Shown here: positions 9,085-32,031 of the stretch, piece by piece
How the letters are laid out: each line of letters opens with the position of its first letter
Numbering within the stretch: the first letter of the stretch is position 1
Virus record (IMG/VR): IMGVR_UViG_3300044825_001821
Span: 32,001-96,000 of that record
DNA: 64,000 bases
Strand: one strand, 5' to 3'
DNA from: a virus
Translations under genes and position numbers: made by a program
Notes under the pieces: model-generated
The model's input: only the letters and a program-made list of their open reading frames with translations
Database searches by the model: none
Told to the model about the DNA's origin: nothing

Positions 9085-9460
9085 AGATAAAATTGTTGCA
9101 AATCGAATTCGTACCCCCGATGGTACGATTCTTGAATCTATGCACCGCCACGATTATGTAACCTATGTCGATAAGAATGGCAAAGAATACATGGTCGATG
9201 GCGGCCTTGATTACCTGCGCCGCAATGTACATGATGATGCACCGTATGAAGAACTCTCGGTGTATGCTGATGATCTTCATGTTGAAATTCGTGAGGTATT
9301 CAAGTGGGGTACACGTGGTAAAGATGGTAAGCAACCACTGAAATTTGTACCACTAAAAGACTTGACAACTGAACACATTGAGGCTATACTGGATACTCAA
9401 ACACATATTTCCGATCACATTCGAAAAATATTTTTGAATGAATTGGCAATTCGTGGATAA
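9074..9460 (+). CDS. conserved phage hypothetical protein (TPDGT.L.S.HRHDY, VDGG..YLRR)
   Basis: ORF with recognisable phage motifs. Confidence 0.75.
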   Translation: MYTEDKIVANRIRTPDGTILESMHRHDYVTYVDKNGKEYMVDGGLDYLRRNVHDDAPYEELSVYADDLHVEIREVFKWGTRGKDGKQPLKFVPLKDLTTEHIEAILDTQTHISDHIRKIFLNELAIRG

Positions 9461-9477
9461 GTTGGATATATACTGAT

Positions 9478-9573
9478 ATGAACAATCTAATACACATTAC
9501 AAAGCAAGCGCCCGAATATCGCACATTTAGCGATAATGGCTCATGGGCACCTGTGTCGGAGGTTTGTGTATAG
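9478..9573 (+). CDS. putative attenuator leader peptide MNNLIHITKQAPEYRTFSDNGSWAPVSEVCV (all 20 amino acids)
   Basis: 31-codon ORF whose 3' end is complementary both to its own 5' end and to the 5' arm of the downstream terminator. Confidence 0.7.
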   Translation: MNNLIHITKQAPEYRTFSDNGSWAPVSEVCV

Positions 9574-9599
9574 ATTGTAATCGTTAGCAGATATACAAC

Positions 9600-9639
9600 A
9601 AACCCCGAAGCCCAAAAAGTTTCGGGGTTTTGTTTTTTT
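9600..9639 (+). terminator. intrinsic terminator (attenuator 3:4 hairpin)
   Basis: aaaccccgaagc / gtttcggggttt 12 bp stem, then tgttttttt. Confidence 0.9.
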
Positions 9640-9665
9640 GATAACGAAAAAAGTTTAAAAAAACC

Positions 9666-9694
9666 TTGACAAGTAAATGGCTGTTCTATACAAT
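9666..9694 (+). promoter_or_regulatory. sigma70-type promoter in front of tRNA array
   Basis: TTGACA(AGTAAA)-17-TACAAT. Confidence 0.85.
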
Positions 9695-9827
9695 GGTCGA
9701 TGTTGAGTGAGTGAGAAAGAAAAAACGGAAGTGAGCGATCCGACTCTGAGAAGAGTTTAGCAAGGGTTGATGCGGTAGGGCAGCTTCGGCATCTGTAATA
9801 GCGATTCCTTGTTAGTTCTTGAATTAT

Positions 9828-9903
9828 GCACCCATCGTCTAGAGGCCTAGGACCCTGCCCTTTCACGGCAGTAACACCGGTTCAAATCCGGTTGGGTGTA
9901 CCA
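9828..9903 (+). tRNA. tRNA-Glu(TTC)
   Basis: cloverleaf, loop CTTTCAC, encoded CCA. Confidence 0.92.
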
Positions 9904-9954
9904 AGTTCTTAATAGGAGACCTGTCATGGATAGTGACAAGAGTGGTAAGATGAA

Positions 9955-10030
9955 GGGAGTATAGTCAAACGGTTAAGACAGCGGACTTTTAATCCGTCAG
10001 GTCAGGGTTCGAATCCCTGTGCTCCCACCA
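9955..10030 (+). tRNA. tRNA-Lys(TTT)
   Basis: loop CTTTTAA, GTTCGAATC, CCA. Confidence 0.92.
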
Positions 10031-10064
10031 TATAAAAGTATTTTGATTCAGAGTATTTTTATAT

Positions 10065-10142
10065 GGCACTTTAGCATAGTTGGCCTAATGCGCTGCCCTG
10101 TCACGGCAGAGATCACGGGTTCGAATCCCGTAAGTGTCGCCA
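10065..10142 (+). tRNA. tRNA-Asp(GTC)
   Basis: loop CTGTCAC, GCCA end. Confidence 0.92.
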
Positions 10143-10149
10143 GAATTAT

Positions 10150-10224
10150 TGCCAAGTAGCACAGTGGTAGTGCAGTTGACTGTTAATCAATTGGTCGTTG
10201 GTTCGATCCCAACCTTGGCAGCCA
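10150..10224 (+). tRNA. tRNA-Asn(GTT)
   Basis: loop CTGTTAA, GCCA end. Confidence 0.92.
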
Positions 10225-10593
10225 GTATCCCGCTTACCGTTAAGTGTCAAGTAACGGCGATCCTAATGTCGAAAATGATTAGGCGTATTGTGAGCGTCAA
10301 TCACACGGCAGAACAGAAAATCATATGATAATGCCGCAGAGTCCCGCTTACATGGGAGCCTTATGAAAATACTGTTCCGGTAGCAAGCCAGGCCACCGAT
10401 ATAATAAATTGGACGGACAGAGTAACTGCTCAGTCTAGGGCTTATGGGAGTAAGTAGCTAGACACCTTAATTGTGTTATCTGTAAGCCATGGGCTTGATC
10501 ATGCCTGAGTAACTATGTACACAGACGGTAAATCCGGCCGGCTATTCCGTTGAGCATAGCAAATAGTGCAGATAACACAATTAAGGTAACTGT

Positions 10594-10667
10594 TGGGGAT
10601 TAGTGAAATGGTATCACACCGGATTTTGATTCCGAGGTCGTAAGTTCGATTCTTACATCCCCTGCCA
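10594..10667 (+). tRNA. tRNA-Gln(TTG)
   Basis: loop TTTTGAT, weak 1:72 pair, GCCA. Confidence 0.9.
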
Positions 10668-10674
10668 AATTATT

Positions 10675-10758
10675 GGGTGACGAGCAGCACTGGTGACTGC
10701 ACCTGACTGTAAATCAGACGCTTCGGCATACTTGGTTCGACTCCGAGGTCACCCACCA
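10675..10758 (+). tRNA. tRNA-Tyr(GTA)
   Basis: loop CTGTAAA, extended variable arm, ACCA. Confidence 0.9.
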
Positions 10759-10932
10759 GTAAACTTGAGTTGTGGCAAGTATAGTCCACAAACAGGAGTG
10801 TAACCTGATTCATACAAAGATAAGTATGAAACGTGAATGAGCCATCTTTTGACCGTGTTCTTTAGGCAGGAAACACATAAGAAAACGGCAGGCGTTAAAC
10901 GTGATTACAATCGCCTAGGTAATCAAAGTATT

Positions 10933-11007
10933 CGGTCTTTAGTAAAATGGATATTACGGCGGGCTACGGACCCGCAGGTGGGAGTTCGATTCTCTCAGGA
11001 CCGGCCA
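10933..11007 (+). tRNA. tRNA-Arg(ACG)
   Basis: loop CTACGGA, GCCA. Confidence 0.9.
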
Positions 11008-11099
11008 TATTGAAACACATTGAATCCCAAGGGTACGAGGGGTGGCTGTAGGCCTATATTCCGGTCGATGGGTTCGATTCCCGCAGTGTGTTTCAATAT

Positions 11100-11175
11100 G
11101 GGGGATTGGTGCTAATTGGGAACACATGTGCTTTGCAAGCATGAGTAAGCAGTTCGAATCTGCTATCCTCCACCA
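11100..11175 (+). tRNA. tRNA-Ala(TGC)
   Basis: loop TTTGCAA, G3:U70, ACCA. Confidence 0.9.
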
Positions 11176-11185
11176 AAGTTTTATT

Positions 11186-11261
11186 GCCGGTTTAGCTCAT
11201 CTGGTAGAGCAGGCGCCTTGTAAGCGTCAGGTGGTGGGTTCGAGTCCTGCAACCGGCACCA
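11186..11261 (+). tRNA. tRNA-Thr(TGT)
   Basis: loop CTTGTAA, ACCA. Confidence 0.92.
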
Positions 11262-11269
11262 AGTTTTAT

Positions 11270-11347
11270 CTGAGTGTAATGTCAGCCCGGTAGACGGCCT
11301 GGTTTGGAACTAGGAGGCCGTAGGTTCAAATCCTACCACTCAGACCA
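11270..11347 (+). tRNA. tRNA-Pro(TGG)
   Basis: loop TTTGGAA, C1:G72, ACCA. Confidence 0.92.
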
Positions 11348-11349
11348 AT

Positions 11350-11425
11350 TGCGGGTTAGGGAAGAGGTCATCCCGTCAGGTTCATATTCTGAAGATCGTT
11401 GGTTCGAATCCAGCACCCGCTACCA
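11350..11425 (+). tRNA. tRNA-Met(CAT), initiator-like
   Basis: loop TTCATAT, 1:72 mismatch; lacks the full 3 G:C anticodon-stem pairs. Confidence 0.8.
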
Positions 11426-11439
11426 ATTATAGGTGACTT

Positions 11440-11910
11440 ATGTTTAAAAAAGAAATTGACTTAAATGAAGTGGCTGCGTTTCTTGATAAATGTGGTCCCG
11501 ATACGAAAGTTTATATTGGTGCGGACAGTGAACGTTTTCAAATCAATGGCGACTGGTTTGCTGATTACATTCTAGCAGTTGTAATTCACATTGATGGTCG
11601 TCACGGCTGTAAGATATTCGGTGCCGTACAACGTGAACGTGATTTTGAACAAAAGAAAAATCGTCCACGTTTTCGTTTGATGAATGAGGTATATAAAGTT
11701 TCAGAATTGTATTTGAAATTGTATGAAGTTATACCACATGACATACAAATTCATCTGGATATCAATCCAAGTGAAATGCATGGCAGTTCATGTGTAGTAA
11801 ACGAAGCGATTGGTTATATCAAAGGTACATGTAATGTTGTACCACTGATCAAACCAAAAGCATTTGCAGCATCATATGCGGCTGATCGTTTCAAAAGTTT
11901 AGCAGCATAA
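11440..11910 (+). CDS. YkuK-family RNase H-like protein inside tRNA array
   Basis: YIGADS, RLMNEV, IHLDIN, KP.AFAASYAAD motifs. Confidence 0.8.
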   Translation: MFKKEIDLNEVAAFLDKCGPDTKVYIGADSERFQINGDWFADYILAVVIHIDGRHGCKIFGAVQRERDFEQKKNRPRFRLMNEVYKVSELYLKLYEVIPHDIQIHLDINPSEMHGSSCVVNEAIGYIKGTCNVVPLIKPKAFAASYAADRFKSLAA

Positions 11911-11919
11911 AAAAGTAAT

Positions 11920-11994
11920 GCGGGTATAGCACAGTGGTAGTGCGACACGTTGCCAACGTGTAGGTCATCAGTTCGAATCTGATTATCCGCTCCA
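11920..11994 (+). tRNA. tRNA-Gly(GCC)
   Basis: loop TTGCCAA, TCCA end. Confidence 0.92.
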
Positions 11995-11999
11995 GGTAT

Positions 12000-12073
12000 T
12001 TCGGTGTGGCGTAATGGCAGCGCAGGAGTCTCCAAAACTCTTAGTGGGGGTTCGATTCCCTCCACCGAAGCCA
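12000..12073 (+). tRNA. tRNA-Trp(CCA)
   Basis: loop CTCCAAA, GCCA. Confidence 0.92.
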
Positions 12074-12076
12074 AAT

Positions 12077-12171
12077 GGTAGACAGCACTGGTGTGCGGCG
12101 GAGACTTATAAACTCTGGAGAGTGGCTAGATGGGCTGCAACGGCTAGGTTCGAATCCTAGGTCTACTACCA
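12077..12171 (+). tRNA. atypical tRNA-Ile(TAT) with long variable arm
   Basis: GGTAGAC/GTCTACT acceptor, loop CTTATAA, about 25 nt variable region, 95 nt. Confidence 0.7.
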
Positions 12172-12183
12172 GTGTTTTTTGGT

Positions 12184-12257
12184 GTGGCCATAGTGTAACG
12201 GTAGCACTAGACATTGTGACTGTCTCAGTTCGGATTCAAATTCCGATGGTCACCCCA
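12184..12257 (+). tRNA. tRNA-His(GTG)
   Basis: loop TTGTGAC, C73 discriminator, no encoded G-1. Confidence 0.88.
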
Positions 12258-12266
12258 AAAAATATT

Positions 12267-12342
12267 GGTGCTTTAGCTGATGTGGTCATAGCAGTGGCCT
12301 GAAGAGCCTCGGAAGTTAGTTCGATTCTAACAGGCACCACCA
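12267..12342 (+). tRNA. tRNA-Phe(GAA)
   Basis: loop CTGAAGA, ACCA. Confidence 0.9.
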
Positions 12343-12343
12343 T

Positions 12344-12417
12344 TGTCCTGTAGTTAAATGGTATAACTGTCGATTGATAATCGACCATTACAAGTTCAAT
12401 TCTTGTCGGGACAACCA
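12344..12417 (+). tRNA. tRNA-Ile(GAT)
   Basis: loop TTGATAA, ACCA. Confidence 0.9.
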
Positions 12418-12422
12418 GAATT

Positions 12423-12497
12423 GGTAGTGTAGCATAATGGTAGTGCGCCACCTTCATACGGTGTTAGGTGTAAGTTCGAATCTTACCACTACTACCA
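12423..12497 (+). tRNA. tRNA-Met(CAT), elongator (or Ile2)
   Basis: loop TTCATAC, ACCA. Confidence 0.85.
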
Positions 12498-12498
12498 A

Positions 12499-12574
12499 GC
12501 GCCGGTGACGGAACGGTATACGTGTTGGTCTTAGAAACCAAATTCTGAGAGTTCGAATCTCTCCTGGCGCACCA
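12499..12574 (+). tRNA. tRNA-Leu(TAG), short variable arm
   Basis: loop CTTAGAA, 76 nt. Confidence 0.88.
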
Positions 12575-12580
12575 GTATTT

Positions 12581-12654
12581 GCCTTGTTAGTTTAATGGTA
12601 GAACTCTGTCTTTACACGGCAGTTACGGTGGTTCGATTCCATCACAAGGCACCA
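12581..12654 (+). tRNA. tRNA-Val(TAC)
   Basis: loop TTTACAC, ACCA. Confidence 0.92.
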
Positions 12655-12661
12655 GTATCAT

Positions 12662-12739
12662 GCAACGGTGGCAGAGTGGTCCAATGCAAGAGTCTGCAAA
12701 ACTCTAAAGCCGTCGGTTCAAATCCGACCCGTTGCTCCA
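12662..12739 (+). tRNA. tRNA-Cys(GCA)
   Basis: loop CTGCAAA, U73 TCCA. Confidence 0.92.
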
Positions 12740-12744
12740 AATAT

Positions 12745-12834
12745 GGAAGTGTGGCAGAGTCCGGTTTATTGCACCTGTCTTGAAAACAGACGTATCGAAA
12801 GGTACCGTGAGTTCGAATCTCACCGCTTCCGCCA
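12745..12834 (+). tRNA. tRNA-Ser(TGA)
   Basis: loop CTTGAAA, long variable arm, GCCA. Confidence 0.92.
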
Positions 12835-12847
12835 AATAGGAGAAAAA

Positions 12848-13009
12848 ATGTTGATACTTACAACAATGCTGACGATGATATTTTATTGGGTATTGTTTGG
12901 TTTATCTGTAACGGCATTTTTATTCGTGATGTATGGTATCGCAATAGTATCTGGAGTGTTGGCCGAGTTGGTCGAAGGCACTTTCCTGCTAAGAAAGCAT
13001 ACCCCATAA
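12848..13009 (+). CDS. small membrane protein overlapping tRNA-Ser(GCT)
   Basis: AGGAG SD at 12838, hydrophobic N-terminal 35 aa. Confidence 0.45.
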   Translation: MLILTTMLTMIFYWVLFGLSVTAFLFVMYGIAIVSGVLAELVEGTFLLRKHTP

Positions 13010-13044
13010 GGGTATCATTGGTTCGAATCCAATACACTCCGCCA
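12953..13044 (+). tRNA. tRNA-Ser(GCT)
   Basis: loop CTGCTAA, long variable arm, GCCA. Confidence 0.92.
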
Positions 13045-13045
13045 C

Positions 13046-13074
13046 TTGACAACGTTTTTTCATTGATATATAAT
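13046..13074 (+). promoter_or_regulatory. sigma70-type promoter
   Basis: TTGACA-17-TATAAT. Confidence 0.9.
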
Positions 13075-13098
13075 GTTTACTGTCGCATGGAGAAAGAA

Positions 13099-13260
13099 AT
13101 GAAAGGTAAAACTTTGAAAAAACTGTCCAAACCACGGAATTTTGTGGCAAAAGACTTATTCACACCGAAATATCGAATAAGAGTTGAGCACTCATCTGTA
13201 AATTTTTACAATCGTGCTTCCGAAAAACAAAATTTCCGAAAACAAAATGTCTATTTTTAG
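13099..13260 (+). CDS. small basic protein (PRNFVAKDL.TPKYR)
   Basis: GGAG SD, ATG 13099. Confidence 0.65.
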   Translation: MKGKTLKKLSKPRNFVAKDLFTPKYRIRVEHSSVNFYNRASEKQNFRKQNVYF

Positions 13261-13684
13261 AAAAAAAGTTGAAGAACCCGTCGATCCACCCGTTTCAGGT
13301 AATGAAATGGATGATTTTGACGGTTTTTATTTTGTTCCTGATGATGATGACTTTGAAAATAACTATAAAATGATATTTTTCAACATGAAAGATGAATATT
13401 CCAACTCAAAACCAGTTGAGAGTTCACACATGGGGCTAAAATATCACTTGTGTTTTTTCAAAACCGATGAAAATGGCGCTCCTGTGTTTGATGATGCGTT
13501 TGAAGCCATACTTGTTGACCCTTTAACGTATGTGAAGAGCATGACAGGCTCAGGAATTGGTGGTTGTGTCTTGAAAAAGACAGAAAAATCGGATGGATGG
13601 TGGACTGATTACTTGAATTTCATCACCGGTGGCGAATTTAAGCAAAAAGTAAGAGAGGCATTCGGTTCTATCGCAAACAATTGA
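13247..13684 (+). CDS. hypothetical protein
   Basis: ORF overlapping previous; ATG 13247. Confidence 0.7.
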   Translation: MSIFRKKVEEPVDPPVSGNEMDDFDGFYFVPDDDDFENNYKMIFFNMKDEYSNSKPVESSHMGLKYHLCFFKTDENGAPVFDDAFEAILVDPLTYVKSMTGSGIGGCVLKKTEKSDGWWTDYLNFITGGEFKQKVREAFGSIANN

Positions 13685-13710
13685 TCATGAAAGTGAGGAT
13701 TGATAAATTT

Positions 13711-14004
13711 ATGGAAAAAATATTCGACCCAAGTTACAAAGATTACAAAACAAGCCGTAAATGGCTGATTGGTTTGCTCGAAAGTGAGATTGTAGAAATT
13801 ACTTTCTTAAAAAAAGACGGAACTGAACGTATAATGAATTGTACGTTACAAGAAGATTACTTACCAGAAACAGTTGGCTCTGATAAAGATAAAAATAGTG
13901 ATGCACTTGCGGTTTTTGATGTAGACAAAGAAGATTGGCGCTCATTTCGTTGGGATTCAGTAAAACGAATTTCATTTTCTATTGGTGGAGAACATAATGC
14001 CTAA
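13711..14004 (+). CDS. SH3/WYL_2-like beta-barrel protein
   Basis: ITFLKKDGTER.MNCTL, VFDVDK..WRSFR. Confidence 0.75.
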   Translation: MEKIFDPSYKDYKTSRKWLIGLLESEIVEITFLKKDGTERIMNCTLQEDYLPETVGSDKDKNSDALAVFDVDKEDWRSFRWDSVKRISFSIGGEHNA

Positions 14005-14287
14005 GTATATCGTAGAACAAATTTCTGTACACCGCAGTGTATTTGTGGTCGAAGCGGATAACCAAGAAGATGCTAAAAAAGTTGCGGCAGTTGCCGATGA
14101 CAATTGGCAACAATGGCTTGGTCAACTTGATGTTGATGTGAATGAGTATTCTGAAGAAAGAATTGCTTATTTCAAACACAAAGATTATTTCTGGGATGGT
14201 GTTTCATACAAAGACAGTGATGGATACCTTGCATATCATCACCCATCAGGTGAAGATATAGAACGTAAGGAAATTGTCATTCGTTAA
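13997..14287 (+). CDS. hypothetical protein
   Basis: GGAG SD. Confidence 0.7.
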   Translation: MPKYIVEQISVHRSVFVVEADNQEDAKKVAAVADDNWQQWLGQLDVDVNEYSEERIAYFKHKDYFWDGVSYKDSDGYLAYHHPSGEDIERKEIVIR

Positions 14288-14293
14288 TCAAAT

Positions 14294-14371
14294 GCGGACG
14301 TAGTGTTCAACGGTTAGCACGTGAGCCTTCCAAGCTTGAAGTGAGGAGTTCGAATCTCCCCGTCCGCTCCA
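14294..14371 (+). tRNA. tRNA-Gly(TCC), outside main array
   Basis: loop CTTCCAA, TCCA end. Confidence 0.9.
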
Positions 14372-28956: not shown

Positions 28957-29123
28957 TGATGCAAATTAGTGAAACAGAATATGATCAAAAACTTGAACAG
29001 TATTTGAAAGAGCAAGGACCAAATCCCGGTACCACATTTTTTGGTGCTTGGGGTTGGTATGCATCAAAGAAGAATCAGTTTGAGAAACAAATGCAGCAGG
29101 AAGGAATTGTTGTAATCCCTTCA

Positions 29124-29412
29124 AAGTGAAGGCATTCTGGACGGCGGTTCGATTCCGCCCATCTCCACCAAAAGCATCTTGATGGCTATAAGGTTGTAGA
29201 TTTGATCACCTACAATACGCTGTGTGATGGGTGCTTTTGATGGGGATGATCTGGTTTCGACAGGGTGAGATAGTGGAGAAGGCAACACGAAAGGCGACGG
29301 ACGTAATCCGAGCAAAATAAGTAATCGCAAATGACGACTACTACGCTCTAGCAGCCTAAAAATTGTTAGATGGGGTTTAAGTGGGTTGTACCTTATTACC
29401 AAAACAGCCCAC
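29124..29412 (+). ncRNA. ssrA: circularly permuted (two-piece) tmRNA, tag ANDDYYALAA
   Basis: 3' acceptor half GGACGGCGGTTCGATTCCGCCCATCTCCACCA (ends 29170) precedes 5' half GGGGATGATCTGGTTTCGAC (starts 29242); tag ORF 29327-29359; outer ends approximate. Confidence 0.92.
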
Positions 29413-29432
29413 ATCAAATTCAGAGATATATC

Positions 29433-30143
29433 ATGCGTGTACATATTGGTCCTTATACAAACTGGTTTGGTCCTTATCAATTAGCAGAACTGCTTTGCTT
29501 TTGGGTAAAAAAAGTTCCTGATGAGCATGGCTTCAAACGACATCCAGATTGGGTTCATGATTTTGGTACTTGGCTGTCTGAAGATAAAAATGGCAAATCA
29601 TCTTGGCTAACTAAGTTTTGTTGGTGGGTTGATGGTCACAAGAAACGCAAAATCAAAGTACACATTGACAAGTACGATACATGGTCAATGGATCACACAT
29701 TGGCTCACATTATTTTGCCGATGTTGAAACAACTGCGTGATACCAAACATGGTTCACCACTAGTCGAACTTGAAGATTTGCCAGAAGAACTATGCATGAC
29801 GGGATATGATGACGGTTCATCACAATTCAGATTGAAGTTTGAAGATGATGAACAATATGAAAAAGAATCTTGGGATATTACACATCGTCGTTGGGAATGG
29901 GTATTGAATGAAATGATTTTTGCGTTCGAACATCTGCTTGATGATTCGTGGGAAGAAGCATATCGTTCTGGTCACATTGATATGCAGTTTGTGCCATGTG
30001 AAGATAACCCGAAACTATCACACATGGTAGATGGACCCAATCACACATACCAATGTGATTATGATGGTATGAATAAAGTATATGATCGCATGGATAACGG
30101 TTTTCGTTTGTTTGGAAAATATTACAGAGGACTTTGGGACTAA
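29433..30143 (+). CDS. conserved phage hypothetical protein (DTWSMDHTLA, GF.LFGKYY..LWD)
   Basis: long ORF, ATG 29433. Confidence 0.8.
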   Translation: MRVHIGPYTNWFGPYQLAELLCFWVKKVPDEHGFKRHPDWVHDFGTWLSEDKNGKSSWLTKFCWWVDGHKKRKIKVHIDKYDTWSMDHTLAHIILPMLKQLRDTKHGSPLVELEDLPEELCMTGYDDGSSQFRLKFEDDEQYEKESWDITHRRWEWVLNEMIFAFEHLLDDSWEEAYRSGHIDMQFVPCEDNPKLSHMVDGPNHTYQCDYDGMNKVYDRMDNGFRLFGKYYRGLWD

Positions 30144-31506: not shown

Positions 31507-32031
31507 ATGAGTCATTATGACGATTACAATGAGAAACACAGTTTTACATTTCGATTTGATTCGAATGATGGAGAAGTTCATTTGGAAATGAGCGTCAATG
31601 AACTATACATTCAAGATGTTCTTGATCGATTTAGAGAATTTTTATTGGGGTGTGGTTATCAAGTTAATGGAGAAATTGATATTGTCGAATACAATTCTGA
31701 ACAAGATCATGATAGTGGTTATACTTTAACTGAGCCACCAAAACATGAGCCTAAGTTTGACTTCAGTAATGTACCAAACAACAATTGGCCATTTGGTTCA
31801 CTAAAACCTGAACCGATTCCTGCATTGACTACTGCTGACTTATCAGGAATCACTGTAACTGATTTGTCTACGTTGACAACTCATTCTTATGGTGATTGGT
31901 CTGGTGTCAACAAATATGCAACTATGGCACCTTTGACATCTGAGCAAATCTATTCTTGGTCAACTGAAATGCCAGGCACAATTGGTGGTGCTAAAGTTTC
32001 ACGTGGAAATTACGGTAACGATGCCTACTAA
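31507..32031 (+). CDS. hypothetical protein
   Basis: AAGGAG SD. Confidence 0.7.
   Translation: MSHYDDYNEKHSFTFRFDSNDGEVHLEMSVNELYIQDVLDRFREFLLGCGYQVNGEIDIVEYNSEQDHDSGYTLTEPPKHEPKFDFSNVPNNNWPFGSLKPEPIPALTTADLSGITVTDLSTLTTHSYGDWSGVNKYATMAPLTSEQIYSWSTEMPGTIGGAKVSRGNYGNDAY

Follow-up and report, generated by a model that had tools for sequence, protein, structure and literature searches.

A phage tRNA array preceded by a leader ORF for all 20 amino acids and a putative ribosome-dependent transcription attenuator

How the expression of phage tRNA arrays is controlled is, to our knowledge, not known. The question is raised by the window examined here, a 64,000 nt stretch corresponding to positions 32,001 to 96,000 of the IMG/VR record IMGVR_UViG_3300044825_001821, in which a short ORF, an intrinsic terminator and a large set of tRNA genes follow one another on the same strand. 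The current view is that such arrays make good the loss of host tRNAs, be it through degradation in the course of infection or through cleavage by nucleases of defence systems (PMC10264068, PMC10802454). An earlier note, made from the sequence of the window alone, proposed that the ORF and the RNA pairings around it form a ribosome-mediated attenuator. The anatomy, conservation, covariation and composition described below support this proposal, and we think it probable that the element is a working ribosome-dependent leader-peptide transcription attenuator at the head of the array. However, its translation, the stalling of ribosomes on it, the timing, the read-through and the size of the effect are all inferred.

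The source is a T4-like phage from lake water, represented by a single contig of 172,439 bp (38 % G+C) with 25 tRNAs and a tmRNA, and its genome includes the T4-like baseplate genes gp5, gp6 and gp8. By gp6, the closest relatives in GenBank are pelagiphages and the methylophage Melnitz, with ~40 % identity. Pelagibacter phage Mosig, HTVC008M and Methylophilales phage Melnitz, the nearest relatives in culture, were considered as models and rejected as unsuitable. One tRNA and a tmRNA were found in positions 1-50000 of Melnitz (141,548 bp in all), and a tRNA array was absent from this part.

The leader ORF (9478-9573, + strand; 31 codons) runs from an ATG to a TAG at 9571-9573 and lies downstream of a gene for a 134 aa protein that ends at 9460. 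Within the 3' end of that gene there is a sigma-70-type promoter-like site (9362-9390, + strand; TTGACA, 17 nt, TATACT, 11/12 match), located 116 nt 5' of the AUG, which is the likely source of the leader transcript. Both hexamers of this site are identical in 17 of 21 relatives, and synonymous sites between the hexamers vary. The site is missing from three relatives in clade A, in which there is a promoter after the terminator, and from locus L061, where the upstream gene is a different one. The Shine-Dalgarno sequence of the leader ORF is weak or absent. An A/T-rich motif directly 5' of the AUG (9466-9474, + strand) is conserved in both of the alignments used, A1 and A2, and could be either the -10 element for a leaderless or short-leader mRNA or a region for initiation that is independent of a Shine-Dalgarno sequence, but this is an inference made without transcription start site data. 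Such -10-like motifs are also found just 5' of unrelated tRNA-array leaders, and the one preceding this AUG is compatible with leaderless initiation, which is untested. A second, strong promoter-like site (9666-9694, + strand; TTGACA, 17 nt, TACAAT, 11/12 match) stands between the terminator and the array. The array (9828-14371, + strand), which is the presumed regulated output, consists of 23 tRNA genes that cover all 20 amino acids. Both the downstream promoter and the array had been described in the earlier note and are present.

The leader ORF does encode all 20 amino acids, as had been claimed, and is unique in this respect. It is the sole ORF with 20 types among the 604 ORFs of ≤45 aa in the window, and also among the 1887 small ORFs of the 172,439 bp genome. 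The null probability of this outcome, a calculation that the earlier note had left to be done, is about 1e-4 to 5e-4. For 31 codons starting with Met, the exact chance of finding 20/20 is 1.3e-4 with the composition of the phage proteins, 4.8e-4 with the phage base composition and 2.1e-3 with uniform frequencies. Of 10,671 windows of 31 residues inside long ORFs, only one contains all 20.

Among the related leaders that are described below, 17 of the 23 distinct peptide variants contain all 20 amino acids. Leu is absent from 6 of the 23, and among these six Lys is missing as well from two and Glu from one. The near-complete coverage that had been predicted for relatives was therefore found, but completeness is not obligatory, as six variants are without one or two amino acids. 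Shuffling of the alignment columns among the variants leads to an expectation of 9.9 ± 2.0 complete variants, compared with the 17 observed (P = 3.5e-4). Residues that occur only once tend to shift place rather than to vanish: Gln, which trades places with Glu or Pro, is found at position 10, 12 or 13, and Leu at position 4 or 27. A more limited result is obtained when only the variable sites are allowed to mutate, the chance of completeness being kept in all five of the compared lineages then being ~0.02. The leader sequences are also phylogenetically related, which is a caveat. The signal for a selected all-20 composition within this leader family is real but modest.

The match between leader and array is at the amino acid level and is not strict for Leu. 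In four of the seven complete arrays (L039, L040, L041 and L043), tRNA-Leu(TAG), which is found at 12499-12574 in the window, is missing and the leaders there keep Leu. A codon-for-codon match between the leader and the anticodons of the array was also considered and is not supported, as codon 4 is TTA or CTT in relatives, and these also contain ACC or CCC codons that would go unread by the array tRNAs under strict wobble. We note that tRNA-Leu(TAG) is the array gene most often missing and that Leu is the leader residue most often missing (6 of 23 variants). Val codons are at positions 26, 29 and 31, and Val, together with Cys in the window's copy, is confined to codons 26-31. As this is outside the likely sensing range of the leader (see below), Val would not be sensed. 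The earlier note had cautioned that the last codons may be poorly sensed, and both Val and the Cys of the window's copy fall outside the predicted range.

The same leader ORF and terminator, with the stop placed within segment 2, are present in 36 related viral and metagenomic loci, each beside a tRNA array, and the homologous loci called for by the earlier note thus keep both the ORF and the stems. A search using the upstream gene recovered 37 viral loci, nine with an adjacent tRNA array and 28 without, and the leader was present in all nine with an array and absent from the other 28. A further 3 viral and 24 metagenomic loci were recovered with a degenerate pattern matching the core codons. 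Because this pattern fixed codons 14-24, conservation of the core in these later loci is partly by construction, and the flanks and the nine unbiased loci were relied upon instead. At L061, the leader and array are present and the usual upstream gene is missing, which indicates that the leader belongs to the array. A tblastn search of GenBank phages with the 31 aa peptide found no match, and a DNA search of GenBank phages found only tRNA matches.

The AUG, the position of the stop and the frame are the same in the 36 loci, with the stop varying only to TAA, and internal stops are not found in any leader variant. Three independent indels (-3, -3 and -6 nt) are all in frame. All four Thr codons are used at codon 8 across the relatives, and the numbers of variable sites at codon positions 1, 2 and 3 are 11, 13 and 18, respectively. 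Among the nine unbiased loci, the core varies at three sites, each of them a third position where the change is synonymous. Overall, the amino acids at core residues 14-24 are conserved with synonymous changes only. The leader ORF is maintained as a reading frame. That it is also translated is argued from these coding features and remains an inference.

Segments 1, 2 and 3, the terminator and the stop within segment 2 were all found where the earlier note had placed them. Segment 1 (9482-9496, + strand; codons 2-7) pairs with segment 2 (9556-9578, + strand; codons 27-31, the stop and a further 5 nt) via 9565-9578. Segment 2 can instead pair, via 9556-9572, with segment 3 (9592-9608, + strand), the 3' arm of the antiterminator, which overlaps the 5' arm (9600-9611) of the intrinsic terminator. 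The terminator, 3:4, together with its T tract spans 9600-9639 (+ strand), with a stem at 9600-9630 of 12 pairs, 6 of which are G-C. The stop codon (9571-9573) is within segment 2, and a G run in segment 2 mimics the 3' arm of the terminator. An additional hairpin internal to the ORF (9517-9535, + strand; codons 14-20, 6 bp stem and 7 nt loop) is 99.4 % paired in 27 sequences and appears in all predicted folds. It is, by inference, a candidate RNA polymerase pause hairpin, but its invariance is partly due to ascertainment, as most loci were chosen by a pattern over the core.

The ORF, an intrinsic terminator, an antiterminator sharing a strand of the terminator and a competing 1:2 pairing, namely the features of an attenuator, are thus found, though exclusion is only partial. 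The three pairings had been described as mutually exclusive and all of them exist. However, 1:2 shares only 2 nt with the core of 2:3 (8 nt of the extended helix), and hence these two are not strictly exclusive. No T-box match was found in an Rfam scan of 9300-9900 (E up to 10), and matches to Rfam leader families were sub-threshold (Thr_leader, 20.6 bits compared with a 55-bit cut-off).

The minimum free energy (MFE) fold of the full leader is 1:2 plus 3:4, at -56.5 kcal/mol (z = -4.65 relative to shuffled sequences). Covariation was assessed in alignment A2, which consists of 27 distinct sequences. For the 1:2 helix (14 pairs), pairing is 86.5 % and double changes occur at three pairs; in one of these, codon 4 goes from CTA to TTA and the stop from TAG to TAA, with a U-G pair as intermediate. 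For the terminator, pairing in A2 is 96.9 % and three pairs covary, and the terminator includes a compensated C/G insertion in the L049 group and a compensated deletion in L055. In the register found in the window, no covariation was detected for 2:3 in A2. In the register of clades B-D, 2:3 is 83 % paired, compared with 50 % or less in slid controls, and one of its pairs is UA in 14 sequences, UG in three and CG in one. The 2:3 covariation is thin because both strands are doubly constrained. In L058, the CG case, a T of segment 2 has become C, and the A facing it has become G in both segment 1 and segment 3, which fits a single strand alternating between two partners. The covarying stems that had been sought are therefore found for 1:2 and 3:4, and for 2:3 only in the clade B-D register.

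When transcripts are cut before segment 4, 2:3 is the MFE structure in all 12 of the lineages tested, and for the full-length transcripts of these lineages 1:2 plus 3:4 wins. The calculated energies are -19 to -26 kcal/mol for 2:3, -13 to -19 kcal/mol for the terminator and -10 to -18 kcal/mol for 1:2. According to these predictions, the energetic layout is that of a classical attenuator.

The mechanism that we propose is as follows. A transcript from the promoter at 9362-9390, or from a more proximal one, would carry the 31-codon ORF. If translation is smooth, a ribosome at the last codons or the stop would cover segment 2, 3:4 would form and transcription would terminate at 9639. If the ribosome is delayed anywhere up to about codon 23-24, segment 2 would be free as segment 3 emerges, and 2:3, which is predicted to be stronger than the terminator, would form first, allowing the polymerase to read into the tRNA genes. 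With no ribosome on segment 1, 1:2 plus 3:4 would be the most stable combination and termination would be restored, the uncovered segment 1 helping segment 4 to displace segment 2 by forming 1:2. An element of this type would report the decoding speed of nearly all codon families, and any scarce charged tRNA, whether due to starvation, phage-induced decay of host tRNAs or host anticodon nucleases, would raise transcription of the tRNA genes.

When the footprint of a ribosome is masked, two regimes are seen: with the A site anywhere from codon 25 to the stop, segment 2 is hidden and 2:3 is lost, and with the A site at codon 23 or earlier, segment 2 stays free. Equilibrium folding with one masked ribosome predicted antitermination only for stalls at codons 2-7 in the window's leader, and hardly any antitermination in two relatives. 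Equilibrium folding with a masked ribosome thus fails for stalls in the middle of the ORF, where sensing would have to come from kinetics or from the queuing of ribosomes. In classical attenuators, too, the terminator is more stable than the antiterminator, and we treat this failure as a limit of equilibrium modelling, not as support.

What the switch would control depends on the positions of the first tRNA gene and the downstream promoter. In most relatives, the first base of tRNA-Pro(TGG) is 65-70 nt beyond the leader stop, where the T tract ends, and because it abuts the T tract this gene would be transcribed only by read-through. Where tRNA-Pro is in this abutting position, a promoter that matches the consensus at 11-12 of 12 positions comes next, followed by tRNA-Glu and the remaining array. 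There is a strong promoter in every relative, either after the terminator (clade A, which includes the window) or after tRNA-Pro (all others), and the switch therefore gates tRNA-Pro directly in the latter arrangement and otherwise adds read-through. In the window's copy, the abutting tRNA-Pro has been lost from this position, having moved into the array (11270-11347), and a promoter has been gained after the terminator. Dependence of the regulated genes on read-through is not found here, as the promoter at 9666-9694 intervenes, and with a downstream promoter in the window and in every relative the array is independent of read-through. In the window, the attenuator can only be a boost, as the earlier note had cautioned, and the element is to be seen as a modulator, given the strong promoter that every relative has beyond the terminator or beyond the first tRNA gene. 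Compensated changes within clade A indicate that the element is still under selection in this clade.

We note that tRNA-Pro(TGG) is first after the terminator in L001-L005, L007, L024, L038, L044 and others, and that there are at least two sequence versions of it. No second leader was found in the gaps of the array. A separate tRNA-Leu(TAA)/tRNA-Arg(TCT) pair in the same genome (G000:27861-28024) has neither a leader nor a terminator; it is directly after a protein gene, 14 kb 5' of the start of the window.

The relationship between leader composition and array content was examined more widely by drawing 119 viral loci with tRNA arrays and seeking candidates, consisting of an ORF plus a terminator, upstream of the tRNA blocks. 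This found 30 candidates, compared with 7 on the flipped strand. Eight of the 25 informative candidates match the amino acid set of their own block (P < 0.01), where 0.6 would be expected with random sets. One example is an Ala/Glu/Phe block behind an ORF in which 21 of 36 residues are of these types (P = 2e-10). Leaders for all amino acids are not general, and only 1-3 of the 13 large arrays in the random sample have unusually diverse ORFs upstream. Among four cultured jumbo phages, there was only one weak candidate, in Ralstonia phage RsoM2USA (GenBank accession number MG752970.1; L194:11498-11611). This is a 37-codon ORF with an Asn/Gln-rich run, and its terminator is 15 nt before a block of tRNA genes for Met, Ile, Asn, Asn, Gln and Lys. 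With 15 of 36 residues, its match to the roster is weak, but this candidate could be a tractable model.

A 42-codon ORF with all 20 amino acids was also found in L122, followed by a terminator 10 nt before an array of 24 tRNA genes for all 20, so that in this distant case the terminator abuts the array. L122 belongs to another phage, which has a standard tmRNA and only 27 % identity to the phage studied here in one shared protein. Its relatives, which are from aquatic phages (L228-L259; for example L228:9730-9861, L234, L241, L245 and L250), make up a second leader family, 22-53 codons long and much more variable. Leaders with divergent sequences, which the earlier note had proposed looking for, therefore do exist, and in this distant family they too can reach 20/20 before complete arrays. 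Cases of an amino acid being absent from both leader and array number 41 in the second family, compared with 19.5 ± 3.8 after re-pairing of leaders and arrays, and the observed 41 was reached in 0 of 20,000 permutations. One array, for instance, has no tRNA for A, C, F, K, S or V, and C, F, K and S are missing from the leader before it; where arrays are complete the leaders have 19-20 types. As some of the arrays are cut by contig ends and the loci are related, these P values are indicative only. The order of residues in the second-family leaders partly follows the order of the tRNA genes, with Ile before Trp in the leader only where tRNA-Ile precedes tRNA-Trp (L250 compared with L245 and L249), though L257 is an exception. 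Because leader composition tracks the set of tRNAs that follows, the presence of an all-20 leader before an all-20 array is explained, and it is the expected limiting case of a general rule.

Several other features in or near the array were recorded. The tmRNA of the phage is in the window at 29078-29450 (+ strand), and ARAGORN marks it with an asterisk and locates the coding part at 250-282 of the gene, with a tag ending in YALAA. The asterisk and the position of the coding part suggest the permuted two-piece form of tmRNA. The standard tmRNA of L122 adjoins its array, and array, leader and tmRNA hence seem to travel together. A 156 aa protein of unknown function (11440-11910, + strand; phrog_11311) is embedded in the array and, as a 27 % identical homologue is found in the L122 array (L122:4655-5020), it appears to be array-associated. 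Two gaps in the array, at 11008-11099 and 12074-12183, contain a T-arm-like GGTTCGA.TCC in which no tRNA was called by ARAGORN or Rfam, and these may be decayed or atypical tRNA genes. The 369 nt gap between tRNA-Asn and tRNA-Gln (10225-10593) is without a convincing ORF or an Rfam hit (E up to 0.01), and could be a remnant or contain a structured RNA of unknown type.

The reading of the element as an attenuator that tests individual amino acids has to be weighed against other explanations. It may be that the attenuator senses only the global coupling of translation and transcription and that the all-20 composition is a by-product of descent. This would fit with the six of 23 variants that are without one or two amino acids, with the failure of Leu in the leader to track tRNA-Leu in the array and with the small number of large arrays (1-3 of 13 in the random sample) that have unusually diverse upstream ORFs, and single codons would in any case provide weak sensitivity relative to the codon runs of classical leaders. 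However, the chance of 20/20 is ~1e-4, the second and distant family independently reaches 20/20 and drops amino acids that its arrays lack, roster matches are found in unrelated blocks, and unique residues relocate within the leader family. We consider it unlikely that only global slowing is sensed, though the possibility deserves to be kept in mind. It is quite unlikely, in our view, that the ORF is an ordinary small peptide gene followed by an insulating terminator, with a peptide that acts in trans or is idle and no regulated read-through. A hairpin that is stronger than the terminator competes with it, shares its 5' arm, includes the stop and is conserved with compensation, the 1:2 helix covaries across the two ends of the ORF, and most relatives have no space for a promoter between the T tract and tRNA-Pro. 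The terminator is indeed strong, a strong promoter follows in all relatives and residues 14-24 are conserved with synonymous changes only, all of which a peptide gene would account for, but the conservation of the core partly reflects how the loci were retrieved, and the peptide has no match in GenBank phages.

Neither of these alternatives dispenses with the reading frame. The remaining one does, and takes the element to be an RNA that works independently of translation, either a terminator switch controlled by a protein or RNA or a stable small RNA, in which the frame is incidental. The very high conservation of the nucleotides of the core hairpin, the lack of a clear Shine-Dalgarno sequence and a weak, sub-threshold Rfam resemblance that is to leader families only can be cited for it. 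It is nevertheless very unlikely, given that the AUG and stop are conserved, the indels are in frame, four Thr codons are used at codon 8 and the variable sites are skewed to third positions (11, 13, 18). In addition, the stop changes only to another stop and does so with compensation in its partner, and the matching of amino acid rosters in other families is hard to explain without translation. The ribosome-dependent attenuator remains the preferred reading.

The architecture is that of the trp, his and ilv attenuators, and all of the structural features are present except the dependence of the downstream genes on read-through. In common with the ilvGMEDA, ilvBN, thr, trp, his, leu and pheA attenuators, there is a short leader that is translated in those systems and is inferred to be translated here, 1:2, 2:3 and 3:4 pairings and an intrinsic terminator, and the position of the ribosome would decide between them. 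Sensing of two or three amino acids by one leader is already found in the ilv and thr systems. However, the phage leader has 1-3 codons for each of ~20 amino acids, whereas the leaders of amino acid operons have runs of 1-3 kinds, and the genes that follow it are for tRNAs rather than for biosynthetic enzymes. It also differs in that the ORF reaches from segment 1 into segment 2, within which its stop is located, and in being phage-borne and having a second promoter downstream. T-box riboswitches likewise couple tRNA charging to read-through of a terminator in genes for the translation apparatus, but they bind uncharged tRNA via a specifier codon and the T-box sequence without translation, and T-box features are absent from the phage leader. 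In the vmlR and bmrCD leaders of B. subtilis, slowing of the ribosome favours the antiterminator, and these are general reporters of translation stress (PMC9226507). They respond to antibiotics and control resistance genes, whereas the phage leader has a composition matched to a set of tRNAs and its output is tRNA. No publication on leader peptides or attenuators that control phage tRNA genes was found in the literature. If the element works as proposed, what is new here would be the application of trp-type attenuation to tRNA genes and to ~20 amino acids; the mechanism itself is known.

A broader interpretation, which we offer only tentatively and would not yet rely on, is that this leader is one case of a widespread and unpublished principle in large phages, namely that leaders coded to a roster of amino acids act as multi-input OR gates auditing those charged tRNAs that the phage can replace. 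If this is correct, phage tRNA genes would switch on when any audited tRNA is depleted, as by an anticodon-nuclease defence or the decay of host tRNAs, and in the limiting case, that of the all-20 leader, the whole decoding apparatus would be audited by ~90 nt. As leader composition follows array content in other phages, the leaders could be read as annotations of the tRNAs that matter. With a leader of this kind, testing each of the amino acids, the reach of trp-type attenuation would grow from 1-3 to twenty amino acids and from enzyme genes to tRNA genes. Such a leader would be a compact natural sensor of decoding capacity, and would make expression of the array self-tuning and responsive to defences that target tRNA.
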